A stretch of 33,790 nt of DNA, from positions 1 to 33,790 of IMG/VR virus record IMGVR_UViG_2529292829_000010. One strand, written 5' to 3'. Every line of letters begins with the position of its first letter. Within the stretch, counting starts at the first letter, position 1. The notes under the pieces are model-generated. The model had not been told where the DNA came from. It saw only the letters and a list, made by a program, of their open reading frames with translations, and made no database searches. The position numbers and the translations under genes were made by a program. This document shows positions 1,241-20,937 of the stretch, piece by piece. The DNA comes from a virus (lineage: Duplodnaviria; Heunggongvirae; Uroviricota; Caudoviricetes).

Positions 1241-1306
1241 GTGGTCACGTGCCTTACAGCATGACCGCCGCCAATATAATTCGGGGACGGCGATCAGGGT
1301 TGAACA

Positions 1307-3787
1307 TTAAAAATCAACCGGATTCGGGATCAGTTTTTGCCAGATTGCTGAAACGTATTTTGCCTGGTGACGGGCATCATCCAGCGCATTGTGGCGCACG
1401 CCTTCAAATGGAATAACGATTCTGGCATCAAAGTCGATTGTTTTTCCCAGCTCAACGATTGTGCGTACATCGCGATCGTTGTAGTAACGCCACGGGCAGG
1501 GGATCCCCTGCCGTTCGTATGAACGGCGCAAAATTGCGTTATCGAAAGTTGCACCATTACCCCATACCTGAACGAATTTTTCATCTGAGTATTCGTGGAT
1601 GAACTCCCGAAACCGCGAAAGGGCATCCTTCAGTTTTACCTGGTCTGTTAAAATGGCAGCTCTGGCTTCACTGGACTGCTTCAGCCACCATTCGATGGTT
1701 CCACCGTCAGGAACAGCCCCTGTATTCATTGCGTCAGTCAGACTGATAACGATATAAAATACTGGCCCGATTTCCCCTGTTTGTGGGTCGAAGAAAACCG
1801 CACCAATAACCACGATGGGCGCATTGGTGTTGGTTCCCATTGTTTCAAGGTCGATCATCAGGTGATACCACACTCTGCTGGTGGATGTGATAATGTGACG
1901 ACCGTTCACCGCAATTAAGGGAGCTGCCGTCTCGCCAGTTTCATTATCGCTGGCGTGGTCCTGAGCGCTGCCAGCATTCTCCTTGTGTGGATGTTCAGCG
2001 CCTTCCATTTCCTTCGGATCATTTTCCTGAACTTCAACCTGATTCTTGTCATCGAATGTTTCCTGGTATGTTGCGTCGCCCATCACCGCGCCACAATCAG
2101 GGCAGTTGCCGCCACCGATCTGACCGCAGGCGGTGCAGACTTTTTCCGCTTCCTGTTGTGCTACCGGTTCGGATTGTTTCGTTTCTGGCTCGTTTTGTTG
2201 CGTATTTGGGCTGTTTTGTTCCGCTTTCTGGTCGTTCTGTTCCGTTTCTTGCTGGTTCTGGTTCACAGTATCGCGGGTCTGGATCCCCTTAACCCATTTC
2301 GGATCATTCGGGTCGCTAATCCCTGCAACAAATTCACCACGTGATACTGCAAGCAGTTCATCGGCGTCAGGCTGGCTGATATTGGCTGCCTGCATAATTT
2401 TGTTTACTTCGTTAGCGGTAACTTTTACCGGCCCTGGTTGTGCGGTCGTGTCAGATGCACCAGTATTTTGTTGTGAACCTGAGTATGTACCGTTTTTGCG
2501 GGCGAAATATTCTTCTTTCGTGATTTCAGTAGCCCCTGCAGCCAGTGCCTTATCCAGACCAGAAAGTTTGTTTGCGCGACCGTATTTTTCGCCATCCTTG
2601 TCGGTGAAGAGGAAGTAGAACGGCCCCTCACGCTCTACAGATGGTTCGACTTCCACTTTGCATTCGGTTTTTTCGTTGTCCGGAATTGCCGTTTCCACTG
2701 CATCAGTTTCTGGTACTGGCGACGAGAGAGTATCAGTTGCGCTCTGATTTGTTCCTTCATCTTCAAACACGCCCTTTGTAGTCAGGTATTCAGTAATGTA
2801 TTTGTTCAGTGCCACAGGATCTTTGTGAATGTCGATCGGACGTTCACGGACAAGGCCAAAAATAGTCTGGCGGTCGTAGCGAAGGGCATCAGGCTGTTTG
2901 CGCATCGATGCCGAGATACGCTTCCAGTCTTCGCGGTCGTTGTCGATAACTTCATTTTTTGCCCAGCGATGGATGCTGCCGTCAATGTTTCCGGCATCCA
3001 CATCACCAGGCCAGAGAGCGTAGGCCAGTTCGTCATCCAGTGTTTTCCATGTCTGCTTGTATTCGCGATGAGTGGCAGCAATGACCGGGTTGATTTTTCC
3101 TGTTGAATTTTCAGTGTTCTGTTGATTGACTCTGGCGCGGGCAAGATCAACAACAGACGTGTATTTTCCGGTTTCCTTGCGTTCACCTTCGCGACGTTTT
3201 TTCCAGATGCGCATCTCTGCCTGAATTTCGGGCCATTTGGCACCAGGCTTACATTTATGCTTAACCCACCCGATGGCATGCAGCTTAAGCTCCGGATACA
3301 TGGCGTTAACTTCTGGCATTTTCATCAACGCTTCAACGATATGTCCGTCGAATGTTGCCATGTCTTCCTGCAACAATTCCTGTGCGCTAATAACCATATC
3401 AACGGTGATGTTTTCACATGTGTCGAACTTAACCATGACAGCGTTCTGTACTTCAGGGGCCAGCTTGTCAAAAGTGACGTTCATCGGATCTGATTCAGTC
3501 TCAACCGGAACAAAGGAAGCAGACTCCTCATCCCAGCGGTTTTCCTGCATATATTCAGCATCCCAGGAATCGAGGGCAGGGCGGGGTATACCGGGTTTAT
3601 CCTCGCAAACAAGAAATTTATAAGCGCAGTCCTGAGCAGCCGGATATTGCTCCAGGAATTGCCAGGTAAATTTGGCACGGGCGCGGCGTTCGTCACCGGC
3701 TTCAATGGCAGTGGCTACAGCAACTGCACCTTCTTCCTTTATTGCCTGTTCGTCCGGAATGGCAGCGCAAATAAAGACTTTACTCAT
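1307..3787 (-). CDS. Large early-left protein, 826 aa: unknown N-terminal domain, Cys4 zinc ribbon, acidic linker, C-terminal DnaQ-like DEDDh 3'-5' exonuclease
   Basis: ATG at 3785-3787 with GAGG upstream. Exo motifs in the C-terminus: MIDLETMG (Exo I), WGNGATFDNAIL (Exo II), HNALDDARHQAKY (Exo III). CTACGQIGGGNCPDCG zinc ribbon. Gln/Glu/Asn-rich low-complexity linker. Confidence 0.8.
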   Translation of the reverse strand: MSKVFICAAIPDEQAIKEEGAVAVATAIEAGDERRARAKFTWQFLEQYPAAQDCAYKFLVCEDKPGIPRPALDSWDAEYMQENRWDEESASFVPVETESDPMNVTFDKLAPEVQNAVMVKFDTCENITVDMVISAQELLQEDMATFDGHIVEALMKMPEVNAMYPELKLHAIGWVKHKCKPGAKWPEIQAEMRIWKKRREGERKETGKYTSVVDLARARVNQQNTENSTGKINPVIAATHREYKQTWKTLDDELAYALWPGDVDAGNIDGSIHRWAKNEVIDNDREDWKRISASMRKQPDALRYDRQTIFGLVRERPIDIHKDPVALNKYITEYLTTKGVFEDEGTNQSATDTLSSPVPETDAVETAIPDNEKTECKVEVEPSVEREGPFYFLFTDKDGEKYGRANKLSGLDKALAAGATEITKEEYFARKNGTYSGSQQNTGASDTTAQPGPVKVTANEVNKIMQAANISQPDADELLAVSRGEFVAGISDPNDPKWVKGIQTRDTVNQNQQETEQNDQKAEQNSPNTQQNEPETKQSEPVAQQEAEKVCTACGQIGGGNCPDCGAVMGDATYQETFDDKNQVEVQENDPKEMEGAEHPHKENAGSAQDHASDNETGETAAPLIAVNGRHIITSTSRVWYHLMIDLETMGTNTNAPIVVIGAVFFDPQTGEIGPVFYIVISLTDAMNTGAVPDGGTIEWWLKQSSEARAAILTDQVKLKDALSRFREFIHEYSDEKFVQVWGNGATFDNAILRRSYERQGIPCPWRYYNDRDVRTIVELGKTIDFDARIVIPFEGVRHNALDDARHQAKYVSAIWQKLIPNPVDF

Positions 3788-3866
3788 TTTGTTTTACCTC
3801 ATTACAGATTTAAGGGTGAACAAATCCCTGCCATTGCTGGCATATAAAAATGAAACTGGATATTAA

Positions 3867-4070
3867 TTACGGCGCTGTTTTTAATCCTGCCGGGATTTCG
3901 TTATTATCCATGCGAATAACTTTCTCGACCAGATAACAGTTACCAGGAATTTTCTGTTCTGCTGCGGCAGCCATACATTCTTTCATTGAACCATATATAC
4001 CAGTAACCACATCAACAGGTTCGCCAGTATTAAGAAAAACAGTCAGAGTGAGGGCAACAGCAGTCTTCAT
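3867..4070 (-). CDS. Small membrane protein, 67 aa, YdfD-like by position
   Basis: ATG at 4068-4070 preceded by AAGGA; overlaps the dicB stop (ATGA). N-terminal hydrophobic segment MKTAVALTLTVFL. Identity to YdfD not verified. Confidence 0.55.
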   Translation of the reverse strand: MKTAVALTLTVFLNTGEPVDVVTGIYGSMKECMAAAAEQKIPGNCYLVEKVIRMDNNEIPAGLKTAP

Positions 4071-4255
4071 TGCCAGCGTCCTTTTTGCATCAGGCGTAAA
4101 CGGGCCAGCATTGAAACAATGCATATTTTATTTAATAACTCCCGTTCGTGTTTTCTCTTGTTAATGGCATCTTCAGTAAATACAGGGTTACTGATAGTGA
4201 CACCAATTTCAAAACAACCTTCAGACGTATTAACGTTTGGTAATAACGTTTCCAT
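4067..4255 (-). CDS. dicB: Cell-division inhibitor DicB, 62 aa
   Basis: ATG at 4253-4255 preceded by GAGGA. Protein METLLPNVNTSEGCFEIGVTISNPVFTEDAINKRKHERELLNKICIVSMLARLRLMQKGRWQ matches my recollection of E. coli DicB in length and sequence. Lies immediately downstream of a DicF-like RNA on the same strand. Confidence 0.8.
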   Translation of the reverse strand: METLLPNVNTSEGCFEIGVTISNPVFTEDAINKRKHERELLNKICIVSMLARLRLMQKGRWQ

Positions 4256-4424
4256 TATCGCGTCCTCAACAATGAATTTTGTGATGCGGTGCCTGGTGCC
4301 TCCAGGTGACGTTAACCAGTTAACAATTAACGCCGGATACAGAGAATCCACCCATAACACTGTTTTTGGTTTTAACTGTTCCGCGTGCGCTTAGCCGCAT
4401 TCACCGCATCATAAAATTCACTTT

Positions 4425-4482
4425 AAAAAGGGCGGCAGAGCAGTCACGGAGTAAAACTGATACCGCCAAACGTCACCAGAAA
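4425..4482 (-). ncRNA. dicF: DicF-like small regulatory RNA (ftsZ translation inhibitor)
   Basis: Minus-strand transcript 5'-UUUCUGGUGACGUUUGGCGGUAUCAGUUUUACUCCGUGACUGCUCUGCCGCCCUUUUU-3' matches my recollection of DicF, with a GC-rich 3' stem and U-run. Sits directly upstream of dicB, as in the Qin dicB operon. Confidence 0.75.
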
Positions 4483-4822
4483 ATTGATAACAGAGGGCGT
4501 TGCAGCGGGGTTGTCACTTAAGCGTATGGTCAACCTGACAACCCGGTGTCCTCAACGGGGAAGGAATACCCCCGCCATACTTACCGCCGCGCCATTTCGC
4601 GGAGTGCCACAACCGGAAGCGCACGGTCGACGAAAATTTAACGACAGGCTATCTATGAACCAGCTACCTCGCCGTGCGCTTTCGCGTTATGGTCTGACTT
4701 TTCAGGGAAATATCCTTTCAGTAAACTGTCAATGCCGGATGCTCACCCGTGTCCGGCGCACGCACTCCACCTCACCCGTGGAGAACTCCTTAATTACTAA
4801 CCTTAGCTTTGTTGATTAGCTA

Positions 4823-5041
4823 CTAACGCGGGTATGTAATCATTCTGGCAATGCTTAATGCCGCTGCTTTTTCCAGATTGGTGATATCCTGCTCCAGAGC
4901 GGACATATTTTCAGCCTGCTTAGCCCTGGCTTCATTGGCCCATTTCAAATCCTGCGCTGCATTAATTTTCTGGCGCATCCACTCATAAAGTTCATCATCG
5001 GTATAGTCTGGCGCGATGATGACGGGTTCTCGTTTCTGCAT
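4823..5041 (-). CDS. Small early-left protein, 72 aa, YdfC-like by position and size
   Basis: Internal ATG at 5039-5041 preceded by AAGGAG. Protein MQKREPVIIAPDYTDDELYEWMRQKINAAQDLKWANEARAKQAENMSALEQDITNLEKAAALSIARMITYPR. The frame is open upstream, so the true start is unresolved. Confidence 0.5.
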   Translation of the reverse strand: MQKREPVIIAPDYTDDELYEWMRQKINAAQDLKWANEARAKQAENMSALEQDITNLEKAAALSIARMITYPR

Positions 5042-5560
5042 GTCGACTCCTTGTGGTTCGTGTTGCCTGCTTTTAACCACATCAGGCGAGGTGGTATCCT
5101 GAAAGCCGACCAAAGCTTTACGGATAAATAAGTTATGTTGCAACCACCAATAAATCCGCTTAAAAATATGAAAATTGATTACTGGTATAAAGCACTTACA
5201 GTTGTTGGTGCTGCGTTGTTTGTCTTTAATGGAACATCTTTTTTTGACAGATACCCCGCTGTTCCACTGGCTTTTTTGTCCTCCGGTATTTTCTTCACTG
5301 GCCTTGGAGAGTGGATCAATCACCCTCTCAGAGTGAGATTTATTGGTCCCGGAGCCGTTGCCCGGGGGCATAACCGTTCTCCGTGCACACTCGGCATTAT
5401 CTTCGATATATTGGGTGTCTGCCTGATTGTTACAGGAGTCGTCAAATTCTTCTGAAGAGAATCCACACACAGGGCATACAACCGGAATACGGCAAATGAT
5501 TTCACCCGGCTCGATGTGTGGGTACTCGCCATCAATTTTTTGTTGCTCCCGTATACCCAT
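4823..5560 (-). CDS. Alternative long reading of the same frame (246 codons) with a Cys-rich CPVCG N-terminus
   Basis: ATG at 5558-5560 with GAGG upstream is the first leftward ORF after the PL-like promoter. No stop until 4823. The central segment looks low-complexity and an antisense membrane-protein ORF overlaps at 5168-5455. Confidence 0.3.
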   Translation of the reverse strand: MGIREQQKIDGEYPHIEPGEIICRIPVVCPVCGFSSEEFDDSCNNQADTQYIEDNAECARRTVMPPGNGSGTNKSHSERVIDPLSKASEENTGGQKSQWNSGVSVKKRCSIKDKQRSTNNCKCFIPVINFHIFKRIYWWLQHNLFIRKALVGFQDTTSPDVVKSRQHEPQGVDMQKREPVIIAPDYTDDELYEWMRQKINAAQDLKWANEARAKQAENMSALEQDITNLEKAAALSIARMITYPR

Positions 5561-5741
5561 GTTGACCTCATTTCCCCTTAACGCCGGGGTAGCGGAACAA
5601 AAACCTGCTGCATAGTTATTAAAGTTGAACCCTGCCGTCATGTTCTTACGCCTCGGGCTGGCTACTTAACCCCTGACCACTGCCTGGTAACTCGAAGTAT
5701 TGCCCTGCATTCTGTGGGGCGGGGTGGGTTGGCATGCAATA

Positions 5742-5770
5742 AATCTAAAAGTATTTAGTTTTATAGTCAA
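5742..5770 (-). promoter_or_regulatory. PL-like leftward early promoter with overlapping palindromic operator
   Basis: On the minus strand: -35 TTGACT (5765-5770), 17-nt spacer, -10 TAGATT (5742-5747). Operator-like palindrome TCTAAAAGTATTTAG at 5744-5758, related to the PR operator. Confidence 0.5.
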
Positions 5771-5788
5771 GAGGAATCTAAATTAATT

Positions 5789-5816
5789 TAAAAAAAAGGT
5801 CGGCATAACCGACCTT
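5789..5816 (-). terminator. Rho-independent terminator downstream of the repressor gene
   Basis: Minus-strand RNA AAGGUCGG-UUAUG-CCGACCUU followed by 8 U, located about 20 nt after the cI stop. Confidence 0.8.
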
Positions 5817-5837
5817 AAGTTCAAGAACATGGCAGGG

Positions 5838-6485
5838 TTATAGGTTGAACTGTACACCTTTTGCTACGGCAACAATTTTACACTCTGGCGTAAGCAAGGA
5901 TGATTGATAGCGCGGATTGAGAGGACTTAAATACACAAGTTTTCCATCAATAACTAATTTTTTTATAGTCATAGACGGTTCATTTGTAAGAGGATCTGGA
6001 ACTATTACAGCGACGATACTGCCATTTTTATAACTTTCTCCTGGTCTTAGGATCACAGTGGCACCAACTGGGATACTTGGCGACCCTGAGGGGTTATGCA
6101 TAGTGTCATCAGGCATTGAAACGGCAAAATCACCTTCCACTACATCAAAGAATGTGGTGATCCTATCGACATTTCCCATTGTTTTCTCTCCTTCTAAGAT
6201 TAGGAAAGAAATCGCGTCACCCCACGAAAGGTAGGGGATCTTGGTGCCTGGATTGTTCTGCACAAAAGATAGTTCAGGAGACGATACTCCATACAGGAGA
6301 TAGGACTCAGTAGTTCCTAATGCTTGGGCTAACTTACTTAGAGCTTTGCTGCCGGGTTCGTTTAGATCTTTCTCCCAGTACCCTATAGTAACCCCAGTCA
6401 CGCCTGAAAGCTTACCCAGCTCTACTTGGGTGAGTCCCTTATCTTTTCTGAGTTTCTTAAGCCTGATGCCAAGGCTTTCCATCAT
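5838..6485 (-). CDS. cI: CI-type prophage repressor: HTH_XRE N-domain plus S24/LexA-like autopeptidase C-domain, 215 aa
   Basis: HTH LTQVELGKLSGVTGVTIGYWE. C-domain AVSMPDDT and TIKKLVIDGKLVYLSPLNPRY parallel lambda CI NSMTAPT and [21 protein letters not shown] (Ser/Lys dyad). Divergent from the cro-like gene. Confidence 0.9.
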   Translation of the reverse strand: MMESLGIRLKKLRKDKGLTQVELGKLSGVTGVTIGYWEKDLNEPGSKALSKLAQALGTTESYLLYGVSSPELSFVQNNPGTKIPYLSWGDAISFLILEGEKTMGNVDRITTFFDVVEGDFAVSMPDDTMHNPSGSPSIPVGATVILRPGESYKNGSIVAVIVPDPLTNEPSMTIKKLVIDGKLVYLSPLNPRYQSSLLTPECKIVAVAKGVQFNL

Positions 6486-6511
6486 TTTCTCCCGCGAGTT
6501 GAATATAAATT

Positions 6512-6568
6512 ATTTTAGATTGCATTGACCTAAAAAAAATTATCCTGTAATCTAAAAATACTTAGATT
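6512..6568 (+). promoter_or_regulatory. PR-like rightward promoter and OR operators
   Basis: -35 TTGACC (6525-6530), 17-nt spacer, -10 TAATCT (6548-6553). 20-bp palindrome AATCTAAAAATACTTAGATT (6549-6568) overlaps the -10. A second imperfect palindrome TTTTAGATTGCATTGACCTAAAA lies at 6512-6535. Confidence 0.55.
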
Positions 6569-6581
6569 TTAGGAGGGTGAA

Positions 6582-6809
6582 ATGCGAGTTGATGAACTTG
6601 TTCAGTTTTTTGGCTCTGTTCAGAGGGTCGCTGATTTTTATGGGATAACCCGCGAAGCTATTTACATGTGGCGTAAGCGCCCCGGTGAAATAGTTCCGAA
6701 AGGGAGAGCTGCGGAAGCTGCTGCATACTCCAAGGGAAAATTATCTTTGGACCCAGAGCTTTACAAAAAGAAGGATACCACTCAGAGCGAAAGGAAGAGT
6801 GATTCATGA
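6582..6809 (+). CDS. cro: Cro-like HTH regulator (YdaS-like), 75 aa
   Basis: AGGAGGG RBS. HTH VADFYGITREAIYMW. First rightward gene, divergent from cI. Confidence 0.8.
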   Translation: MRVDELVQFFGSVQRVADFYGITREAIYMWRKRPGEIVPKGRAAEAAAYSKGKLSLDPELYKKKDTTQSERKSDS

Positions 6810-7231
6810 AAATCAAGCATGAACACATCCGCATGGCGATGAATGCCTGGGCGCATCCGGACGGCGAGAAAGTACCGGCTGCAGAGATTACCAAAGCGTA
6901 TTTCGAGCTGGGAATGACGTTCCCGGAACTGTATGACGACAGCCATCCGGAAGCCCTGGCTCGCAATACCCAGAAAATTTTCCGCTGGGTAGAGAAAGAC
7001 ACCCCTGATGCGGTTAAAAAAATTCAGGCGTTGTTACCGGCGATCGAAAAAGCAATGCCACCTTTGCTGGTGGCCCGAATGCGCAGCCACAGTTCAGCCT
7101 GGTTTCGGGAGCTGGTGGAGACGCGGGAACGGCTGGTGAGAGACGCTGATGATTTTGTCGCAGTGGCGATCGCTGGTTTCAACCAGATGAATCGTGGTGG
7201 CCCTGCAGGAAATATTGTGGCTGTGCATTGA
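6806..7231 (+). CDS. CII-like / YdaT-family regulator, 141 aa
   Basis: ATGA start-stop overlap with cro. Size and position match YdaT of Rac-type immunity regions. Family assignment is from memory of that architecture, not from sequence identity. Confidence 0.55.
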   Translation: MKIKHEHIRMAMNAWAHPDGEKVPAAEITKAYFELGMTFPELYDDSHPEALARNTQKIFRWVEKDTPDAVKKIQALLPAIEKAMPPLLVARMRSHSSAWFRELVETRERLVRDADDFVAVAIAGFNQMNRGGPAGNIVAVH

Positions 7232-7302
7232 CTCGCAATATTCATACCGGATCACTTCCGGCAATTTGTGAGTAAAAAGATTCGGTATCAAAAGAGGTGA
7301 GT

Positions 7303-8343
7303 ATGGCTAACGCCTGGCTCAGATTATGGCATGACATGCCAAACGATCCTAAGTGGCGAACAATTTCCAGGTTGTCAGGACAGCCAATCGCAACAGTGAT
7401 GGCTGTGTATATCCACCTTCTGGTGAGTGCGTCACGAAATGTCACGACATGTCACGGTGTGTCACTACGTGGTCACATTGATGTCACGGCGGAAGATTTA
7501 GCAAGTGCGCTTGATGTGACGGAAGAAGTAATTGATTCAATTTTACAGGCAATGCAGGGGCGGGTACTTGATGGAGATTTGATCAGTGGATGGGAAAAAC
7601 GCCAGGTACTGAAAGAGGACAATGGCAACGTTTCACAAACCGCGAAATCCCCGGCAGAGCGCAAGAGAGCGCAGCGCGAGAGGGAAAAATTACGAAAACA
7701 GAATGAGGGGGCGCGCGACGAGTCACGCATCTGTCACGACATGTCACGACGAGTCACGACAGATAAAGATACAGATAAAGAATTAAACCCCACACATAAC
7801 GCGCGCGTGCGAGAGAGTGCTCCTGCCAGTGAGGCAAATGGCGTGCCGTTGCAAACAGCGGAACCTGATTACCTGGAAGGCCTGAGCGAACCCATCGGGA
7901 AATTTCCGATGACCGATGGCTGGCATCCGTCGCCGGATTTTCGACGACGGGCTGCGCTGTGGGGCGTGGCTCTTCCTGAGCCGGAATTTACACCAGCTGA
8001 ACTTTCCGCCTTCCGGGACTACTGGGCAGCGGAGGGCAAAGTGTTCACGCAGGTTCAGTGGGAGCAGAAATTCGCCCGTCACGTAAATCACGTCAGGGCG
8101 CAGGCTAAACCAGTCAGCAAGGGGGTAAACCATGCAGCAGCACCAGGTGGCACCGCATCACGGGCAGTTCAGGAAATTCGGGCAGCACGTGAGCAGTGGG
8201 AACGTGAAAACGGATTTATCAGCGACGGAAACGGCCTGGAAGCTGTGGGAACTCATGGGGGAGGTTTATTCGAACCGCTGGACCCAGAAGAACGGGGCCG
8301 CACCTTCGAAGCTCTGGATTGCACAGATTGGCGCGATGACTGA
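7303..8343 (+). CDS. Replication initiator (O-like), about 346 aa, with internal iterons
   Basis: ATG at 7303 six nt after AAAGAGG (GTG at 7297 is an alternative). Lies directly upstream of the P homolog. Contains two arrays of GTCAC direct repeats and an AT-rich tract. Confidence 0.7.
   Translation: MANAWLRLWHDMPNDPKWRTISRLSGQPIATVMAVYIHLLVSASRNVTTCHGVSLRGHIDVTAEDLASALDVTEEVIDSILQAMQGRVLDGDLISGWEKRQVLKEDNGNVSQTAKSPAERKRAQREREKLRKQNEGARDESRICHDMSRRVTTDKDTDKELNPTHNARVRESAPASEANGVPLQTAEPDYLEGLSEPIGKFPMTDGWHPSPDFRRRAALWGVALPEPEFTPAELSAFRDYWAAEGKVFTQVQWEQKFARHVNHVRAQAKPVSKGVNHAAAPGGTASRAVQEIRAAREQWERENGFISDGNGLEAVGTHGGGLFEPLDPEERGRTFEALDCTDWRDD
7429..7489. repeat. Iteron array 1: six GTCAC-core repeats at about 10-11 bp spacing
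   Basis: GTCAC at 7431, 7441, 7451, 7461, 7472 and 7483 inside the O-like ORF. Confidence 0.7.
7721..7792. repeat. Iteron array 2 (four GTCACG repeats) plus adjacent AT-rich tract: candidate origin
   Basis: GTCAC at 7722, 7733, 7743 and 7753, followed by AGATAAAGATACAGATAAAGAATTAAA (7761-7790). This resembles the lambda ori arrangement inside O. Confidence 0.65.
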
Positions 8344-8797
8344 GCAGCAAATCCGACAGGTCTGCCGCCAGTGCATGGACCGCTGCCGGGCGGGTGAAAC
8401 ATGGCCTCCGGACCTGGCTGAGTTTGTGGCACTGATTTCGGAGAGTGGGGCAAATCCATTTGGTCTGACGGTGGATGCTGTGATGGAGGAGTACCGTCGC
8501 TGGCGCAATGAGTCCTGGCGATACGACGGAAGCGATAAATACCCATGGACTCAGCCTGTGCTGTATCACATTTGCCTCGAGATGCGTTCAAAGGGGATTG
8601 AGCGCCAGATGACCGAAGGGGAATTAAAACGGCTTGCAGAACGGCAGCTGACGAAATGGGCAAAGCATGTTAGTAACGGCCTGAGCGTTCCGCCAGTCCG
8701 GCGACAACTGGCGGCACCCAAACGCCCGTCGGGACCAACGCCAATTGAGTTACTGAAACAGGAATATGAACGCCGGAAAGCGGCTGGGTTTGTTTGA
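8132..8797 (+). CDS. Replication protein P-like helicase loader, 221 aa
   Basis: C-terminal similarity to lambda P: YPW..., [14 protein letters not shown] versus [24 protein letters not shown] versus SPGQFVAW. ATG at 8132 has AAGGGGG upstream. Overlaps the O-like gene by 212 nt in another frame; later starts at 8255 or 8337 are possible. Confidence 0.75.
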
Positions 8798-8831
8798 GTT
8801 GAGAAGTAATTTTTACCGGGAGGAAATTTTA

Positions 8832-9593
8832 ATGGAGACCGTTTTTGACGCACTGAAAGCGATGGGAAAAGCTACGTCGGTAGAACTGGCTGAGCGACTT
8901 GATATCAGTCGTGAAGAAGTGCTGAACGAACTATGGGAACTGAAAAAGGCTGGTTTCGTTGATAAAAGCGCGTACACCTGGCGTGTGGCTGATAACAACG
9001 TTCAGCAGGAACAGCCAGCGCCAGAAGAACAGCCGGAAGAAACCTCCACGGCGACAGTAGCGAAAATCTCAGAGTGCGATTTAACCGCGACGATTGAACA
9101 ACGCGGACCACAAACGGCTGATGAGCTGGCTACATTGTTTGGTACCACATCACGCAAAGTGGCTTCAACGCTGGCAATGGCAATCAGCAAAGGCCGTCTG
9201 ATTCGTGCTAATCAGGACGGTAAATTTCGTTACTGTATGCCGGGCGATAATTTACCAGCAGAGCCGAAAGCAGCATCGGTAGCGGAAACTGATGGTAAAG
9301 CCTTTCCTCAGCCTGCATGCGTTGCGTTACCAGTACAGGAAGCTGCAACACAGGAAGATATTAAAACAGAGACTGTGGCGGACATTGTGCAGTCGCTGCC
9401 ATCGTTTACTGAAACGCGAGCGGATGACCTGGTTTTACCATCGCTGCATATGGCAAACCGCGAACTGCGTCGGGCGAAAAATCATGTCCAGAAGTGGGAG
9501 CGAGTCTGCGCCGCGCTGCGGGAGCTGAACAAGCACCGGGATATTGTACGACAGATTACTGATTCTTCCCGCCATGTTGCATCGGAAAAGTGA
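8832..9593 (+). CDS. Hypothetical protein with two winged-helix-like segments and a C-terminal helical region, 253 aa
   Basis: ATG at 8832 with GGGAGG upstream. Segments [30 protein letters not shown] and [32 protein letters not shown] look like wHTH. Confidence 0.65.
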
Positions 9594-9608
9594 TTGCCGG
9601 AGGCACCT

Positions 9609-10025
9609 GTGGCAAAAGTATTTACACCAGAAGAGCGGGAAAAAATTAAAGGGCAGGTTATTGAACTCGTGCGCCAGAGTGGGCGCGAGACGTTACGGCA
9701 ACTGGAAGCTAAAACAGGGGCGACAAGATACCTGATGAGCGTTCTCGCCAGAGAGCTGGTTGCCAGTGGTGATGTATACAACTCTGGCTACGGGTTATTC
9801 CCGTCTGAACAGGCTCGTAAGGACTGGATAAAGGCCCGCAAAAAGATGTCGAAAGCAGCAGTGAAAAAAAAGAGCGACCCGGACTTGGTTTATTCATTAC
9901 CAGACGGAGAAATACGTCGTTACAACAGACGACAGAACATAATCTGTCGCGAGTGCCGGAAGAGTGAGGTTATGCAGCGAGTGCTGGCGTTTTATCAGGG
10001 GAATTTTGAGGAGGAGGTACTGTGA
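9609..10025 (+). CDS. Hypothetical protein, about 138 aa (GTG start)
   Basis: GTG at 9609 six nt after GGAGG (TTG at 9594 is an alternative). Possible HTH GRETLRQLEAKTGATRYLMSVLAREL. Cys pair CRECRK near the C-terminus. Confidence 0.55.
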   Translation: MAKVFTPEEREKIKGQVIELVRQSGRETLRQLEAKTGATRYLMSVLARELVASGDVYNSGYGLFPSEQARKDWIKARKKMSKAAVKKKSDPDLVYSLPDGEIRRYNRRQNIICRECRKSEVMQRVLAFYQGNFEEEVL

Positions 10026-10082
10026 GTGAAATTAGCTATCAGGCTTCAATTACCGCTGGCATTCGCATCAAAGGAGAGGAGC

Positions 10083-10442
10083 ATGGAAATAAAACCAGAA
10101 GATGAGTTAAGTAATATTGTTTTATTTCCGGTAAAAGAGGATGACCCACGTAATCAGGTTAATTTTCTTTATGAGCCATCGGAAAGACCATGCTGCCATC
10201 ACGCTTCTGTCCGGGTTGACGAAAAAGAGCGTCAGGTCCGCTGTAAAATCTGCGGTGCAGTTGTGGAGCCATTTGACTGGATGCTCTCTGTGGCGAAAAG
10301 AGAAACCAGACTGGCAGATGGTGTAAAACAATTGCGTCAGGAGGAACGGGAAAGACGGAAAAATATAGAAAAGTTAATTCAGATTGAGCGTAACGCGAAA
10401 GCGCGGATACGCAGGGCGAAAAAAACAGAACTGAATAATTAA
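10083..10442 (+). CDS. Hypothetical zinc-ribbon protein, 119 aa
   Basis: ATG at 10083 with AAAGGAGAGGAG upstream. CCHH...C-x2-C pattern (PCCHHASVRV...CKICGAV). Basic coiled C-terminus. Confidence 0.6.
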   Translation: MEIKPEDELSNIVLFPVKEDDPRNQVNFLYEPSERPCCHHASVRVDEKERQVRCKICGAVVEPFDWMLSVAKRETRLADGVKQLRQEERERRKNIEKLIQIERNAKARIRRAKKTELNN

Positions 10443-10586
10443 ATTTAGCACTGTAAATAATTTTAATCCTTAACCTGAGGGATTTCTGCACCCTCAGAAC
10501 ATCAGTAGGCCGCCCGAAAGGGCGGGAAGCAGTCACACATTTGTTTCCGATAGTCCCGTTCTAATGCTAGACTATTTGATATTTTC

Positions 10587-11273
10587 ATGACCACAATAAA
10601 TACGTTTATGACAGTTGCTGATTTCAAACGGCCTAAATTGGAGCTCCCAAACGGGGCAAACAAACTACTACTGCACTCTTGCTGTGCTCCATGTTCCGGT
10701 GAAGTGATGGAGGCGCTTCAGGCCTCGGGAATCGACTACACCATCTTTTTCTACAACCCGAACATTCATCCTCAGAAAGAGTATTTAATTCGTAAGGATG
10801 AGAATATTCGCTTTGCTGAACAACACGGCGTGCAGTTTATCGATGCTGATTACGACACAGACAACTGGTTTGAACGTGCCAAAGGAATGGAATGGGAGCC
10901 CGAGAGGGGGATCCGTTGTACCATGTGTTTTGACATGCGTTTTGAGCGGACAGCGTTGTACGCTGCTGAAAATGGTTTCAGTGTGATCAGCAGTTCGCTG
11001 GGCATTTCACGCTGGAAAAATATGCAGCAGGTTAACGACTGTGGGCGGCGAGCCGTCGCGCATTATCCGGGAATGGTGTACTGGGATTATAACTGGCGCA
11101 AGCAGGGCGGCTCGTCCCGTATGATTGAAATCAGCAAGCGCGAAAAATTCTATCAGCAGGAATATTGTGGCTGTGTGTATTCTCTGCGCGATACCAATCT
11201 ACACCGCAAATCTCAGGGACGCCCTCTTATCAAAATTGGTCAACTCCACTACGGTAAAGAAGAGAAGGAGTGA
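10587..11273 (+). CDS. QueH-like (DUF208) epoxyqueuosine reductase family protein, 228 aa
   Basis: Motif [11 protein letters not shown] near the N-terminus, plus RCTMCFD and YCGCVY Cys clusters, as I recall for DUF208/QueH. Preceded by two stem-loops and an AT-rich leader. Weak SD, so start is uncertain. Confidence 0.7.
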
Positions 11274-11399
11274 TTTTATGGATCACCTTTCTGATTGATT
11301 TCATATTGGCGAGGTAGCAGGAGTTAAGTAGAATTGCTGCGGGTGCTTGAGGCTATCTGTCTCAGGCATGAACACCAAAAGGCAGATAGAGAAAAGCCC

Positions 11400-11462
11400 C
11401 AGTTAACATTACGCGTCCTGCAAGACGCTTAACATTAATCTGAGGCCATATCTATGCGACAC
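11400..11462 (-). ncRNA. Putative Sok-like antisense RNA
   Basis: Minus-strand promoter-like TTGACC (plus 11491-11496) with a weak -10 near 11466-11471. Antisense to the mok-like start at 11454. Hairpin GCGUCUUGCAGGACGC (plus 11412-11427) near the predicted 3' end. Boundaries inferred. Confidence 0.35.
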
Positions 11463-11513
11463 ATAGAGATTAGCCTCTTACGGACCGAAAGGTCAAGGAG
11501 AAGCAGGCTATGA
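11454..11513 (+). CDS. mok-like leader ORF, 19 codons, translationally coupled to hok
   Basis: ATG at 11454; its TGA stop (11511-11513) overlaps the hok ATG (11510-11512). Confidence 0.35.
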   Translation: MRHIEISLLRTERSRRSRL

Positions 11514-11665
11514 AGCAGCGAAAGGCGATGTTAATCGCCCTGATCGTCATCTGTTTAACCGTCATAGTGACGGCACTGGTAACGAGGAAAGACCTCTGCG
11601 AGGTACGAATCCGAACCGGCCAGACGGAGGTCGCTGTCTTCACAGCTTACGAACCTGAGGAGTAA
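11510..11665 (+). CDS. hokD: Hok/Gef-family type I toxin, 51 aa
   Basis: MKQRKAMLIALIVICLTVIVTALVTRKDLCEVRIRTGQTEVAVFTAYEPEE: single TM segment and conserved Cys pattern, matching my recollection of HokD/RelF. AGGAG 10 nt upstream. Below the 60-aa cutoff of the ORF track. Confidence 0.85.
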   Translation: MKQRKAMLIALIVICLTVIVTALVTRKDLCEVRIRTGQTEVAVFTAYEPEE

Positions 11666-11832
11666 GAGACCTGGCGGGGGAGAAATCCCTCGCCACCTCT
11701 GATGTGTCAGGCATCCTCAATGCACCCGCACTTAACCCGCTTCGGCGGGTTTTGTTTTTTCTGAGCATCCTGGTTTACAATCCACATGCCAGCCTGAACA
11801 ACTGGCACCTGCTGCGCCAGCAGAGAAAACAG

Positions 11833-12105
11833 ATGGCGCACAAGACCAAATTACACAATTCTGATACCGTTCGTGCCAGCAGGCACGGGCGGTGTTCGCA
11901 CGCATTCAAATATGACTGGTATCAGCACGACCCCTGCACTGAAGAACAGGCCGAATGGCTGATTCATAACTACCGCAGACGTGGGTATGAGTTTAGGAAA
12001 GCCCTCAGCCTCGATTATCGTCACTGGATAATCTACGTCAGACTCCCTTATTCCGAACGCCCACCGCGTCCGTCCCGCACATTCCAGCAACGCATCTGGA
12101 GGTAA
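11833..12105 (+). CDS. Hypothetical protein, 90 aa, Rem-like by position
   Basis: ATG at 11833. Position between hok and the YdfU-like gene mirrors the Qin order hokD-rem-ydfU. The upstream part of the 133-aa ORF overlaps the hok 3' structure and is unlikely to be coding. Confidence 0.45.
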   Translation: MAHKTKLHNSDTVRASRHGRCSHAFKYDWYQHDPCTEEQAEWLIHNYRRRGYEFRKALSLDYRHWIIYVRLPYSERPPRPSRTFQQRIWR

Positions 12106-12106
12106 C

Positions 12107-13156
12107 GTGCGGGTATTACTTCGACCTGTTCTGGTGCCGGAACTTGGGGTGGTTATCGTTAAGCCTGGTCGTGAATCCATGCAGGTATTCCATAACGGCA
12201 GAGTGCTGGTTGAACCGGAGCCAAAAAGCATGCGCGGTCTGCCGTCCGGGGTCGTTCCTGCCGTTCGCCAGCCGCTGGCGGAAGACAAATCTCTGCTGCC
12301 ATTTTTCAGCGATGAGCGGGTGATTCGTGCTGCCGGCGGCGCTGGTGCACTGTCTGACTGGCTCCTGCGTCATGTTAAATCCTGCCAGTGGCCTCATGGT
12401 GACTACCATCACAGTGAAACCGTCATACATCGTTACGGTACCGGCGCGATGGTGCTGTGCTGGCACTGCGACAACCAGCTGCGTGACCAGACATCCGAAT
12501 CACTCGGGCAACTTGCTCATCAAAACCTGTCAGCATGGATGATTGACGTCATACGCCATGCAGTGAATGGCACGCAGGAGCGGGAATTATCGCTGGCTGA
12601 ATTATCCTGGTGGGCGGTCCGCAATCAGGTGGCGGACGCGCTTCCGGAGGCAGTATTACGTCGTTCTCTGGGGTTACGTGCGGAAAAAATCCGCTCTGTC
12701 TACCGTGAAAGCGACATCATACCGGGAGAGCAGACAGCCACCAGCATACTGAAGCAGCGCACAAAAAATATTGTGCTACCGCCTCACGCCCACCAGCAAC
12801 AGAACCCACCACAGGAAAAGACGGTGGTCAGCATTGCCGTTGATCCGGAGTCTCCTGAATCTTTCATGAAGCGACCTAAACGTCGCCGCTGGGTTAACGA
12901 AAAGTACACGCGCTGGGTTAAGACACATCCGTGTGCATGTTGTGGTAAGCCAGCCGACGATCCCCATCACCTGATTGGTCACGGTCAGGGAGGGATGGGG
13001 ACAAAAGCCCACGATATTTTCACGCTACCGCTGTGCCGGGAGCATCACAATGAACTTCATGCTGATCCGCTGGCATTTGAAGAAAAGCATGGTTCCCAGA
13101 TTGATTTAATTTTTCGTTTTCTTGATCACGCCTTTGCAACCGGCGTGCTCGGGTAA
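12107..13156 (+). CDS. YdfU-like (DUF968) protein with C-terminal Cys/His cluster, 349 aa
   Basis: GTG at 12107 four nt after GGAGG. C-terminal HPCACCGKPADDPHHLIGHG...LCREHHNELH. Same size and position as Qin YdfU. Confidence 0.65.
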   Translation: MRVLLRPVLVPELGVVIVKPGRESMQVFHNGRVLVEPEPKSMRGLPSGVVPAVRQPLAEDKSLLPFFSDERVIRAAGGAGALSDWLLRHVKSCQWPHGDYHHSETVIHRYGTGAMVLCWHCDNQLRDQTSESLGQLAHQNLSAWMIDVIRHAVNGTQERELSLAELSWWAVRNQVADALPEAVLRRSLGLRAEKIRSVYRESDIIPGEQTATSILKQRTKNIVLPPHAHQQQNPPQEKTVVSIAVDPESPESFMKRPKRRRWVNEKYTRWVKTHPCACCGKPADDPHHLIGHGQGGMGTKAHDIFTLPLCREHHNELHADPLAFEEKHGSQIDLIFRFLDHAFATGVLG

Positions 13157-13168
13157 AAGAGGTTACTG

Positions 13169-13540
13169 ATGCGTATAGAGTTTGTTTTGCCTTACCCGCC
13201 AACGGTGAACACCTACTGGCGACGTCGTGGCAGTACATATTTTGTATCAAAAGCCGGTGAGCGTTATCGCCGTGATGTGGCGCTCATTGTTCGCCAGCAG
13301 CGACTGAAATTAAATCTGTCCGGAAGGCTAGCGATCAGGATTATTGTGGAGCCACCGGATAAGCGCCGTCGTGACCTGGACAATATCCTGAAAGCGCCAC
13401 TGGATGCACTGACACATGCGGGACTGCTTATCGACGACGAGCAGTTTGATGAAATTAATATTGTGCGCAGTCAGCTTGTACCTGGTGGTCGGCTGGGCGT
13501 GAAGATTTACGAAATTACAGGTGGTAACGATGGCACGTGA
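13169..13540 (+). CDS. rusA: Holliday junction resolvase RusA, 123 aa
   Basis: [31 protein letters not shown] closely parallels E. coli RusA [31 protein letters not shown]. AGAGG RBS. Confidence 0.9.
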
Positions 13541-13895
13541 TATTCAGATGGTTCTTGAGCGTTGGGGAGCGTGGGTGGCAAATAATCATGAGGATGTCAC
13601 ATGGCCATCGATTGCTGCTGGCTTTAAAGGATTAATACCGTCGAAAGTTAAATCGCGTCCGCAATGTTCCGACGATGACGCAATGATCATTTGTGGCTGT
13701 ATGGCCCGGTTGAATAAGAACAACAAAGAATTACACGATTTGCTGGTAGATTATTACGTGGCGGGCATGACGTTTATGGCGCTAGCACGAAAGCATGGTC
13801 GTTCGGATTGCTGGGTTGGCCGTTTGTTGCAAAAGGCTGAAGGGATAGTTGACGGCATGTTGATGATGCTTGATATCAAGCTGGACATGGACTGA
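13530..13895 (+). CDS. Late-gene antiterminator Q (short QuuD-type), 121 aa
   Basis: ATG at 13530 six nt after AGGTGG; overlaps the rusA stop. Cys cluster [16 protein letters not shown]. Canonical Q position between rusA and the late region. Confidence 0.75.
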
Positions 13896-13913
13896 TAAAA
13901 CTTAACTCACATA

Positions 13914-13933
13914 CCCTCTCCATGCGGAGAGGG
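13914..13933. terminator. Hairpin between convergent Q and lipoprotein genes (possible bidirectional terminator)
   Basis: CCCTCTCC-ATGC-GGAGAGGG, 8-bp stem. U-rich sequence on both sides is not immediately adjacent. Confidence 0.4.
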
Positions 13934-13939
13934 TATGAA

Positions 13940-14419
13940 TTAAATGTTTTTATAATAACTCGCTTTTTCGTTAAAATTATTTTTGTTTTCTCTGGATGGA
14001 GAACTTACGTAGTTTTCCCATGCGCTATACGTTTTGATTAATGCTTCTCGCTCTGTAGGTGATTTTGTGTTTGCCTTGAGTTTTTCAAATGGTTCTTTTG
14101 CTGCATTTAAAACGATCATCATTTGCTCGATGTCGCAGTCAGCGATTGCTTTTGATATATCGGGATCCCAGCCAACTCTCACTAACATATCTTGCTTGCT
14201 GGAAGTAATAAATTGTGTAGTGTTGATTATCATTTCTCCCTTATATAGAAGCTTTAAAAAATTATTTTTGTTAACTTGCTGGGGCGTGTTGTCCAAGGTG
14301 ATATTTTCGCATTTCTTTAAATACGCATAATGATCACTATTTCTGTTTTCTGCGGAAGATTGAGCCGTACACCCTGTAATGATCAATGTACTTAATAATG
14401 TCAATGCTATTTTTTTCAT
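13940..14419 (-). CDS. Lipoprotein of unknown function, 159 aa (moron)
   Basis: Signal peptide MKKIALTLLSTLIITGC with lipobox ITGC. Gene is visibly AT-rich relative to its flanks and oriented against the surrounding operons. Confidence 0.75.
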   Translation of the reverse strand: MKKIALTLLSTLIITGCTAQSSAENRNSDHYAYLKKCENITLDNTPQQVNKNNFLKLLYKGEMIINTTQFITSSKQDMLVRVGWDPDISKAIADCDIEQMMIVLNAAKEPFEKLKANTKSPTEREALIKTYSAWENYVSSPSRENKNNFNEKASYYKNI

Positions 14420-14495
14420 ATGGGCCTGCTTGTGAATTATCGCACAAGAAAAGTTCGACTAAATTTTATCGTAAAAAGACATCGCCGAACAGATG

Positions 14496-14523
14496 TTTAC
14501 AATCGTAAAAAATCAAATATGCT
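14496..14523 (+). promoter_or_regulatory. Candidate Q-dependent late promoter (PR'-like)
   Basis: -35 TTTACA (14496-14501), 16-nt spacer, -10 TATGCT (14518-14523). A short-transcript terminator follows about 35 nt downstream. Confidence 0.35.
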
Positions 14524-14557
14524 GTTAAGAGTGGTTACTTCGCCACACAGCTTAAAC

Positions 14558-14577
14558 CCGCCGCCAGGCGGTTTTTT
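14558..14577 (+). terminator. Candidate tR'-like intrinsic terminator
   Basis: CCGCC-GCCA-GGCGG followed by TTTTTT. Confidence 0.5.
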
Positions 14578-14700
14578 GTGTCCGAAAAACGGCGCAGTAC
14601 GTTAAACGTGCTGGTGGTTGCGAATACCGGTCTTTCAGCTTGCTGGCTTTTTCGACAAGAGTTATTGGTATGTCACGTTAACCAGAAAAGGGAAAAAGAC

Positions 14701-14898
14701 ATGCTAAAACAGCAGGATATGACCGAAACTGCCAGAGTGGTGTTTAATGAATTAAGCGTCACCGAACCGGCGACCGTCGGGGAGATTGCGCAGAATACTT
14801 ACCTTTCACGCGAACGCTGCCAGTTAATACTGACCCAGCTTGTTATGGCGGGTCTGGCAGATTATCAGTTCGGTTGTTACAGACGCCTTCCGCGGTGA
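14701..14898 (+). CDS. Small winged-helix-like protein, 65 aa
   Basis: ATG at 14701. PATVGEIAQNTYLSRERCQLILTQLVMAGL resembles a wHTH recognition region. Weak RBS. Confidence 0.45.
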   Translation: MLKQQDMTETARVVFNELSVTEPATVGEIAQNTYLSRERCQLILTQLVMAGLADYQFGCYRRLPR

Positions 14899-15048
14899 AG
14901 GTTTTTTAATTTGTGGTAATGGGCGGCTGGTGGGTGTTAGCGGCCCCTGCCAGCCATCTGCTCATGCGTTGTGGTCACAAGCAAACCTCAGGCCCATCTG
15001 CTTTGCGCAAAAGCGGTATGAGCCTATCAGAGAAGTGCTTATTGATCT

Positions 15049-16098
15049 ATGGCTAATACTGTAAAAATATCCAGTTGTGAGTTAATCAACGCTGATTGTC
15101 TGGAATTTATCCAGACCTTACCGGAAAATTCTGTCGATCTGATAGTCACAGACCCGCCATACTTTAAAGTGAAGCCCGAGGGCTGGGATAACCAGTGGAA
15201 GGGCGACGATGATTACCTGAAATGGCTGAATCAGTGTCTGGCGCAGTTCTGGCGGGTACTGAAGCCCGCAGGAAGTCTTTACCTGTTCTGTGGTCATCGC
15301 CTGGCATCTGACACCGAAATCATGATGCGTCAGCGCTTTAATGTGCTGAACCACATTATCTGGGCGAAGCCGTCAGGGCGCTGGAACGGGTGCAACAAGG
15401 AAAGCCTGCGGGCGTATTTCCCGGCAACAGAGCGCATTCTGTTTGCAGAACATTATCAGGGGCCATACCAGCCCAAAAATGACGGCTATGAGGCAAAGGG
15501 GCGTGAGCTAAAACAGCACGTCATGGCCCCGCTGATTTCTTACTTTCGTGATGCGCGTGAATCACTGGGAATAACGTCAAAACAGATAGCGGAAGCCACC
15601 GGAAAGAAAAACATGGCTTCGCACTGGTTTGGTACCAGTCAGTGGCAATTACCGAACGAGGGTGATTACAACAAATTGCAGGCGTTGTTTGCGCGTGTTG
15701 CGGCAGAAAAGCATCAGCGAGGGGAACTGGAAAAGCCACACCACCAGCTGGTCAGCACATACAGTGAACTGAACCGGCAATATGCCAGCCTGCTGGAAGA
15801 GTATAAATCTTTGCGGCGTTATTTTTCCGTATCGGCTGCCGTTCCGTATACGGATGTCTGGACGCATAAATCCGTGCAGTTTTATCCGGGCAAACATCCC
15901 TGTGAAAAACCGGCAGATATGTTGCGGCAGATAATTGAGGCCAGCAGTCACCCTGGTGATTTGGTTGCGGATTTTTTTATGGGTTCAGGTTCAACGGTAA
16001 AAGCGGCGATGGCACTGGGGCGTTGTGCGATTGGTGTTGAGCTGGAGACCGGACGTTTTGAACAGACAGTCAGGGAAGTTCAGGATTTAATCGTTTGA
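15049..16098 (+). CDS. DNA methyltransferase, beta-class amino-MTase (probably N6-adenine), 349 aa
   Basis: Motif IV IVTDPPYF near the N-terminus and motif I DFFMGSGST near the C-terminus (IV-TRD-I order). No adjacent restriction endonuclease. Confidence 0.85.
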   Translation: MANTVKISSCELINADCLEFIQTLPENSVDLIVTDPPYFKVKPEGWDNQWKGDDDYLKWLNQCLAQFWRVLKPAGSLYLFCGHRLASDTEIMMRQRFNVLNHIIWAKPSGRWNGCNKESLRAYFPATERILFAEHYQGPYQPKNDGYEAKGRELKQHVMAPLISYFRDARESLGITSKQIAEATGKKNMASHWFGTSQWQLPNEGDYNKLQALFARVAAEKHQRGELEKPHHQLVSTYSELNRQYASLLEEYKSLRRYFSVSAAVPYTDVWTHKSVQFYPGKHPCEKPADMLRQIIEASSHPGDLVADFFMGSGSTVKAAMALGRCAIGVELETGRFEQTVREVQDLIV

Positions 16099-16148
16099 AA
16101 CGGATGAGATTGCAGAATTAATTACGCACCATTATTATTCTGCTCCCG

Positions 16149-16224
16149 GCCCTTTAGCTCAGTGGTGAGAGCGAGCGACTCATAATCGCCAGGTCGCTGG
16201 TTCAAATCCAGCAAGGGCCACCAT
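16149..16224 (+). tRNA. tRNA-Ile2 (anticodon CAU, lysidine type; ileZ/ileX-like)
   Basis: Cloverleaf: acceptor GGCCCTT/AAGGGCC, D-arm GCTC-AGTGGTGA-GAGC, anticodon loop CUCAUAA (CAT at 16182-16184), T-loop TTCAAAT, encoded CCA. Close to E. coli ileX as I recall it. Confidence 0.85.
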
Positions 16225-16320: not shown

Positions 16321-16397
16321 GCGTTGTTAGCTCAGCCGGACAGAGCAATTGCCTTCTAAGCAATCGGTCACTGGTTCGAATCCAGTACAACGCGCCA
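16321..16397 (+). tRNA. tRNA-Arg (anticodon UCU, decodes AGA; argO-like)
   Basis: Acceptor GCGTTGT/ACAACGC, anticodon stem ATTGC/GCAAT with loop CTTCTAA (TCT at 16355-16357), T-loop TTCGAAT, encoded CCA. Confidence 0.85.
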
Positions 16398-20445: not shown

Positions 20446-20937
20446 ATGGATCATGAGTTGAAAAAACTGGTGCTGAATATTAATCAACTGGCGGCTTTAT
20501 CTGGTCTGCACCGCCAGACTGTCGTGGCAAGACTGAAAAACATTCGTCCCGCTGGTGGACATGACAAACTCAAGCTATACCGGTTGACCGATATTCTGAC
20601 TGAATTTATGGGGTTACCACCGCCGGTTGCTGAGGGCGAAATGGATCCACATGAACGCAAAGCCTGGTATCAGTCTGAACGTGAGCGTCTTAAGTTCGAA
20701 CAGGAAACGGCACAACTCATTCCGGCCAGTGATGTCAGACGGGAGTTTGCCATCTGGGCAAAAGCGGTCGTGCAGGTGCTGGAGACATTACCGGATATTC
20801 TTGAACGTGACTGCGGTCTGCAGCCTGCCGCTGTGAGCCGTGTTCAGTCCATTATTGATGATCTGCGCGATCAGATAGCCCTGCGGGTGACTGAAACAGG
20901 TGCGGATGATGAGGAGGAATTACAGCAGGAGGAGTAA
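20446..20937 (+). CDS. Terminase small subunit (Nu1-like), 163 aa
   Basis: GGAGG RBS. N-terminal HTH LNINQLAALSGLHRQTVVARL. Acidic C-terminus. Directly upstream of and overlapping the large terminase subunit. Confidence 0.8.
   Translation: MDHELKKLVLNINQLAALSGLHRQTVVARLKNIRPAGGHDKLKLYRLTDILTEFMGLPPPVAEGEMDPHERKAWYQSERERLKFEQETAQLIPASDVRREFAIWAKAVVQVLETLPDILERDCGLQPAAVSRVQSIIDDLRDQIALRVTETGADDEEELQQEE

Follow-up and report, generated by a model that had tools for sequence, protein, structure and literature searches.

QueH is an iron-sulfur enzyme that reduces epoxyqueuosine (oQ) to queuosine (Q); the nucleoside occupies position 34 in tRNA-Asn, tRNA-Asp, tRNA-His and tRNA-Tyr. E. coli carries out no de novo synthesis of cobalamin, and loss of QueG, which leaves oQ instead of Q, is not known to cause a strong growth phenotype in this species. 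QueH is cobalamin-independent and iron-dependent, and it performs the last step of queuosine synthesis (PMC5372724; PMC13443448). In E. coli, the oQ-to-Q step is cobalamin-dependent and proceeds via QueG, for which PMC4646009 cites Frey 1988 and Miles 2011. QueG (YjeS) shares with the prophage QueH described here the same predicted reaction, oQ to Q; however, it belongs to an unrelated family, is dependent on cobalamin (PMC4646009) and [4Fe-4S], and is encoded by a core chromosomal gene. S. aureus is reported to keep both QueG and QueH, and the expression patterns of the two have been attributed, plausibly, to cofactor availability (PMC13443448). A 2019 survey reported no homologue of QueA, QueG or QueH in the viruses that it analysed (PMC6884629), and the literature searched yielded no article that deals with QueH from E. 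coli prophages or plasmids.

Results

Genomic context of the prophage queH gene

The window, i.e., the whole 33,790-nucleotide stretch of DNA that was analysed, is a lambda-like prophage, and over the 20 kb that were compared it is identical to an E. coli draft contig (L002). The order of its genes and the features around queH are as follows.

Early left: integrase, YdfE-type exonuclease, DicF/DicB region, cI-like repressor
Replication: Cro, YdaT, DnaT-like and P-like replication proteins
queH slot: DUF1627, DUF977, 138-aa ORF, two hairpins, queH, sok/hok
Downstream: DUF968, RusA, Q, orphan methyltransferase, two tRNAs, lysis genes
Late: lambda-type terminase, portal, head and tail genes
4430-4481, minus strand: DicF antisense sRNA (Rfam RF00039, 76.7 bits)
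11306-11751, plus strand: complete hok/sok type I toxin-antitoxin locus, directly downstream of queH
11306-11334, plus strand: hok promoter-like site (promoter scan)
11341-11512, plus strand: sok (Rfam, 106.7 bits)
11510-11665, plus strand: hok coding sequence
11734-11751, plus strand: terminator-like site after hok (terminator scan)
15049-16098: orphan N6/N4 DNA methyltransferase (PADLOC MTase_II, 517 bits)
16148-16223 and 16321-16397, plus strand: phage tRNAs Met(CAT) and Arg(TCT), between the methyltransferase and the lysis genes

The order of genes from DUF1627 to Q agrees with an earlier sequence-only reading of this DNA, in which queH was placed between the replication block and hok, and hok adjoins queH in every prophage examined. 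That reading had also stated that no other queuosine or 7-deazaguanine genes are nearby, and this holds for the whole window: among the Pfam assignments of the window and of the identical locus on the draft contig there is no TGT/DpdA, FolE, QueC, QueD, QueE, QueF, QueA or QueG, and neither of the two phage tRNAs is a queuosine-bearing tRNA. Its further suggestion of a role in a phage modification pathway finds no support, as the window holds no DpdA/TGT or preQ0 gene, and a change in host translation, which it also raised, is conjectural. PADLOC matched only the methyltransferase at 15049-16098, with no match for QueH or its unannotated neighbours. A defence role for queH was considered and dropped, PADLOC being negative for QueH and its neighbours. 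In the early-left arm, the identical copy of the DicF region on the draft contig encodes DicB and DUF1482, i.e., a Qin/Kim-type cell-division inhibition locus.

The prophage gene encodes a full-length QueH

An open reading frame of 228 aa is present on the plus strand at 10587..11273, and in a profile search its product matched the Pfam family PF02677 (QueH) at E=1.6e-65 and 220.9 bits, over profile positions 1-174 of 175. The strength of this match is far above chance (cut-off, 23.5 bits). It was this profile that the sequence-only reading had named when it assigned the protein to DUF208/QueH, and the assignment is borne out by the profile, by homology to a solved structure, by the predicted fold and by a conserved set of cysteines. 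The two motifs on which the assignment had been based, a 12-residue cysteine motif followed by x2-C (CTMC) and YCGC, are both found in the open reading frame, the first within a 15-residue stretch. In a PDB sequence search, the sole family matched was that of T. maritima QueH (7lc5 and mutants; E=3e-22). An AlphaFold2 model, for which an alignment of 32 relatives served as input, reached a pLDDT of 81.2 and a pTM of 0.81, and the best five Foldseek matches of this model were all T. maritima QueH (TM 0.73 by query and 0.89 by target; rmsd 1.8 Å), with the next matches, the PP-loop enzymes TtuA and LarE, at TM 0.53 or below.

Seven cysteines (C25, C26, C29, C104, C107, C187 and C189 in the numbering of a 221-aa protein, for which see below) are invariant across the 32 relatives, and the cysteines of the CCAPC, CxxC and CGC motifs align with those of T. 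maritima and Firmicutes QueH. The prophage protein thus resembles the T. maritima enzyme (PDB 7lc5, 7lc7, 9deu) in its full-length profile, its fold and six cysteines (CC, CxxC, CGC), but it is only ~31% identical to it, is prophage-borne and has a cysteine in place of Asp13. This aspartate, which is mutated in PDB entry 9dco (D13N), aligns to the third cysteine of the prophage protein; in the alignment, cysteine also occupies the position in QueH of B. cereus, L. salivarius, S. aureus, Serratia, Pseudomonas and Sphingomonas, among others. Asp13 therefore appears to be an exception of T. maritima and not a family-defining residue, cysteine being the apparent norm, so that the prophage protein would carry the canonical set of motifs. 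The allotment of residues to metal sites is presumed here from PDB entry titles. A basic, conserved C-terminal tail of ~25 residues is present in the prophage and proteobacterial QueH proteins but not in the T. maritima enzyme.

These data indicate that the open reading frame is a full-length, intact member of the QueH family. The family is well known, as is the reaction it catalyses, and NCBI already lists the identical 221-aa protein as 'epoxyqueuosine reductase QueH [Escherichia coli]', on 254 contigs; the identification as such therefore adds nothing new. NCBIfam gave no match for the prophage protein, so the name that PGAP gives it must stem from another type of evidence, and the PHROGs entry for the family, phrog_3217, is annotated 'unknown function'.

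The coding sequence most likely starts at the second ATG

The following features make up the gene and its immediate surroundings.

10475..10497, plus strand: hairpin 1, with a 7-bp stem (folding), inside the 10400-10528 block common to QueH-negative prophages
10510..10525, plus strand: hairpin 2, CCGCCC-GAAA-GGGCGG (folding), ending at the mosaic junction; flank matches stop at 10525-10528
10537..10607, plus strand: AT-rich leader of 71 bp, conserved across alleles and always accompanying prophage queH; 10537 is the left edge of the cassette
10587..10607, plus strand: upstream in-frame ATG and 6 codons, probably 5' UTR; variable among alleles and with no chromosomal counterpart
10608..11273, plus strand: queH coding sequence, most likely 221 aa and stop (PF02677, 7lc5, AlphaFold2 fold, homology to chromosomal queH)
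11274..11340, plus strand: spacer between the queH stop and hok/sok, with the right edge of the cassette at ~11275-11321 and a hok promoter-like site; no terminator

The 228-aa protein described in the sequence-only reading corresponds to a real open reading frame, but its start at 10587 is less likely than a start at 10608. At the DNA level, the stretch homologous to chromosomal queH of Scandinavium, Kluyvera and Enterobacter runs from 10606-10608 to 11277, and the N-termini of the chromosomal homologues align to the second ATG. The seven codons that separate the two ATGs carry non-synonymous changes among prophage alleles (TTINTF, TPINIF, TPIKIF and NLINTF), whereas the coding sequence that follows has a dN/dS of 0.02-0.07. 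Because of this onset of homology, the N-terminal alignment and the variable codons between the ATGs, the true start is most likely the ATG at 10608. Gene callers and PGAP likewise annotate the 221-aa form. No obvious Shine-Dalgarno sequence precedes either ATG.

queH forms a cargo cassette at a variable site in lambdoid prophages

The cassette comprises 739 bp (10537-11275), made up of the conserved 71-bp AT-rich leader and the queH coding sequence. Its left edge is defined by matches to E. albertii NBRC 107761, phage HannyBb and plasmid pD17EC0246-6, all of which start at 10537 and have different neighbours upstream; QueH-negative prophages, conversely, match the window over 10400-10528 and then again from 11276-11322 onwards. 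An unrelated 138-aa gene fills the same slot in E. coli AST85. The slot is constant in at least three prophage backbones, of the lambda-GpA/YdfE, RecE/Terminase_2 and PBSX-terminase types, while the recombination, replication and packaging modules differ among the prophages that share the queH-hok position. queH is, in short, a cargo cassette in a variable slot.

The two stem-loops without U-tracts that the sequence-only reading had noted upstream of the gene do exist. Folding of a 151-nt region holding both gave z=-3.0, and a U tract is missing from either strand of both. They are, however, not part of the queH insert. The hairpin-bearing block at 10400-10528 occurs in thousands of E. coli genomes that lack QueH, and the hairpins are absent 5' of QueH in the E. 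albertii genome, the phage and the plasmid named above; both are flank features of the upstream module, outside the cassette. As structures in their own right, the hairpins at 10475-10525 are stable, the second has a GNRA loop, and they are kept in thousands of E. coli prophages whatever cargo follows; they may act as a 3'-end stabiliser, a weak terminator or a recombination boundary. The hairpin module is accompanied by the 138-aa open reading frame at 10026-10442 on the plus strand, just 5' of the hairpins, which contains paired Cys motifs (CCHH...CxxC) and for which the profile search gave no more than a faint, sub-threshold sign of a zinc ribbon (PF08271, E=0.002).

The sequence-only reading had described queH as an independently expressed moron. 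A scan for sigma-70 consensus sites found no promoter upstream of queH, and a terminator scan found none on either side of the gene, the nearest downstream being at 11734-11751, after hok. Rfam searches of the leader and the hairpins, at the gathering threshold and at E<=5, returned no riboswitch (preQ1, cobalamin) or known RNA. A conserved TG-n-TATTTT, seen by eye at 10577-10585 in the leader, is a possible candidate for an extended -10 element. queH has the same orientation as the surrounding early-right string of genes from cro to Q, so that read-through transcription is equally possible. With the stem-loops outside the cassette, no consensus promoter or terminator found and read-through equally possible, independent expression cannot be claimed for the gene. 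As to the label of moron, queH resembles the lambdoid morons of the replication-nin slot in its presence or absence within a syntenic slot, in being unnecessary for the phage life cycle and in forming a single-gene cassette, but it differs from them in that neither a promoter nor a terminator of its own can be recognised and in that its composition does not set it off from its flanks (GC 0.43-0.52 along queH versus 0.44-0.55 in the neighbours). The label is fair only in a loose sense: the cargo does sit in a variable slot, but a terminator of its own and a distinct base composition are missing.

Distribution in E. coli and redundancy with queG

Of 5426 complete E. coli genomes, 995 (~18%) carry the queH coding sequence, and 985 of the 995 copies are near full length; the remaining 82% of the genomes are queH-free. 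The copies lie at 1014 chromosomal places and 3 on plasmids, and all are annotated 'epoxyqueuosine reductase QueH', including that of EAEC 042 (locus EC042_RS07825). The flanks are found in 4179 genomes, against 929-995 for the gene itself, which is present or absent among syntenic prophages. The gene, whose distribution across related prophages the sequence-only reading had proposed to survey, is thus accessory. queG, by comparison, is present in all 5426 complete genomes, and prophage queH is therefore always redundant with it.

Among phages, the isolated phage HannyBb carries queH, where it is annotated 'hypothetical'. HannyBb aside, the matches among the 25 from phage databases were 'UNVERIFIED' fecal contigs or host-like records of 280-380 kb, and these were not counted as phage QueH.

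The alleles of prophage queH are 94.6-98% identical in nucleotide and 96-99% in protein sequence. Between pairs of alleles, synonymous and non-synonymous differences number 12 to 1, 10 to 3 and 30 to 6, respectively, and dN/dS is 0.02-0.07 at a dS of up to 0.26. The prophage QueH protein is maintained by sustained purifying selection.

Relatives and origin of the coding sequence

A search of GTDB with one genome per species yielded more than 590 relatives. The highest identities outside Escherichia were found in Scandinavium (92%), Kluyvera (90%) and Enterobacter (88-90%), followed by relatives in Pantoea, Erwinia, Serratia, Dickeya and Photorhabdus and then by those of Pseudomonas, Sphingomonas and Stenotrophomonas (75-80%). 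The relatives outside Escherichia (75-92%), from other Proteobacteria, lie in genus-conserved chromosomal neighbourhoods, with none of the phage neighbours seen in the window. In Enterobacterales (e.g., Scandinavium, Kluyvera, Enterobacter, Serratia, Erwinia and Photorhabdus), the QueH encoded on the chromosome is like the prophage protein in identity (75-92%), length and invariant residues. Homology to chromosomal queH is confined to the coding sequence, the leader and flanks being phage-specific. Because the close relatives are chromosomal and the homology is limited to the coding sequence, the simplest history is that a bare coding sequence was probably captured by a phage from an enterobacterial replicon.

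Similar genes are also found on plasmids. About 99 Klebsiella plasmids bear a queH that is 88-90% identical, and the QueH of Klebsiella conjugative plasmids has the same length and all invariant residues but is not accompanied by the phage genes of the window. On the K. pneumoniae plasmid NZ_CP063012.1 (1-13000), queH lies between CBASS genes (DncV-like, ThiF, JAB), a gene for a NACHT protein and a dGTPase, and on pKP43_vir_amr it lies between TonB fragments and IS26. Since the CBASS/NACHT adjacency does not recur on the second plasmid, there is no consistent association with defence.

Discussion

The prophage probably carries a functional QueH, captured as a bare coding sequence, that would give the lysogen or infected cell B12-independent synthesis of Q. 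By this proposal, a lambdoid prophage lineage of Escherichia would have acquired queH, as coding sequence alone, from a chromosome or plasmid of enterobacteria, and would have kept it since as cargo, in a 739-bp cassette that occupies the variable slot flanked by the replication genes and hok/sok. The encoded protein is predicted to reduce oQ to Q without cobalamin, and the prophage copy would let the lysogen or infected cell complete Q when B12 is missing, as a backup for QueG. Because every E. coli has the cobalamin-needing QueG and none makes cobalamin de novo, the prophage QueH most likely finishes Q without B12. The reported presence of both enzymes in S. aureus offers a precedent for such redundancy of QueG and QueH. 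Points that weigh against the proposal are the negative searches for a consensus promoter, a Shine-Dalgarno sequence and a terminator, the lack of a known strong growth phenotype on loss of QueG, which bears on the size of any benefit, the 82% of E. coli genomes that have no queH, and the cysteine at the position of T. maritima Asp13, although cysteine is usual there in the family.

This proposal, in which the lysogen may benefit, can be set against a second reading, with the same enzyme but another beneficiary and timing. In it, queH would act as a delayed-early gene of the lytic cycle, expressed by early-right read-through, and would tune the decoding of NAU/NAC codons for late phage proteins instead of serving the lysogen. 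The orientation of queH within the cro-to-Q string, together with the negative scans for a promoter or terminator belonging to the gene, is consistent with such a role, as is the retention of queH by the free phage HannyBb. The late genes (20446-33018) also use U-ending codons more often than the early genes (1-16098), at 0.74 versus 0.51 for His CAU, 0.66 versus 0.46 for Tyr UAU, 0.68 versus 0.59 for Asp GAU and 0.56 versus 0.48 for Asn AAU, but the codon counts are small and the contrast is suggestive at best. Moreover, the overall codon usage of the window resembles that of typical E. coli, which counts against this role. A short lytic cycle would leave little time for re-modification of the tRNA pool, the TG-n-TATTTT of the leader could be a promoter of the gene's own, and the reading presumes that oQ and Q would decode differently. 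We consider a lytic function of this kind unlikely.

Less likely still is that queH is a neutral passenger, hitch-hiking with hok/sok in a recombination-prone slot and of no benefit to phage or host. Its constant position beside hok/sok, the unrelated cargo in the slot of other prophages and its full redundancy with queG would all fit a passenger; however, a dN/dS of 0.02-0.07 at a dS of up to 0.26 reflects sustained purifying selection, 985 of 995 copies are near full length, and ~99 Klebsiella plasmids have independently gained a similar queH, which together make neutrality improbable. Finally, although phages with 7-deazaguanine DNA modifications exist (PMC6884629) and one Klebsiella plasmid has queH between CBASS/NACHT genes and a dGTPase, recruitment of QueH to the modification of phage DNA, or to defence or counter-defence (e.g., of tRNAs targeted by anticodon nucleases), is very improbable, for the window has no homologue of DpdA/TGT, QueC, QueD, QueE or QueF, and thus lacks the transglycosylase, FolE, QueD, QueE and QueC of a phage 7-deazaguanine system (DpdA and preQ0 genes), PADLOC has no match for QueH, the neighbours on the second Klebsiella plasmid are TonB fragments and IS26 and not defence genes, and the 75-92% identity to housekeeping chromosomal QueH with all residues conserved suggests nothing of a new function.

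The reading of prophage queH as a B12-independent backup for QueG would, if the gene is active in lysogens, provide a simple case in which a phage changes the cofactor that its host needs for a tRNA modification, and the oQ/Q status would then differ among E. coli strains grown without B12. A broader interpretation, put forward tentatively and with less confidence than the reading itself, is that this is a lysogenic conversion of the tRNA epitranscriptome, by which the prophage frees the maturation of host queuosine from vitamin B12. If true, it may be of consequence where B12 is scarce, or for btuB mutants that escape BtuB-dependent phages and colicins at the cost of B12 uptake; the decoding of Asn, Asp, His and Tyr codons would be altered in about one sixth of E. 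coli strains, and no auxiliary gene of a phage would have been shown before queH to carry a tRNA hypermodification of the host to completion.

The mobility of queH in the Enterobacteriaceae, in prophages, in phage HannyBb and on Klebsiella plasmids, is undiscussed in the literature searched. Short, diverged and unannotated QueH-like fragments also occur on plasmids of E. coli and E. albertii (H116-H121; e.g., NC_013942.1, 54958-55134), covering 26-50% of the length of QueH at 40-61% identity, and these are possibly decayed copies of queH.
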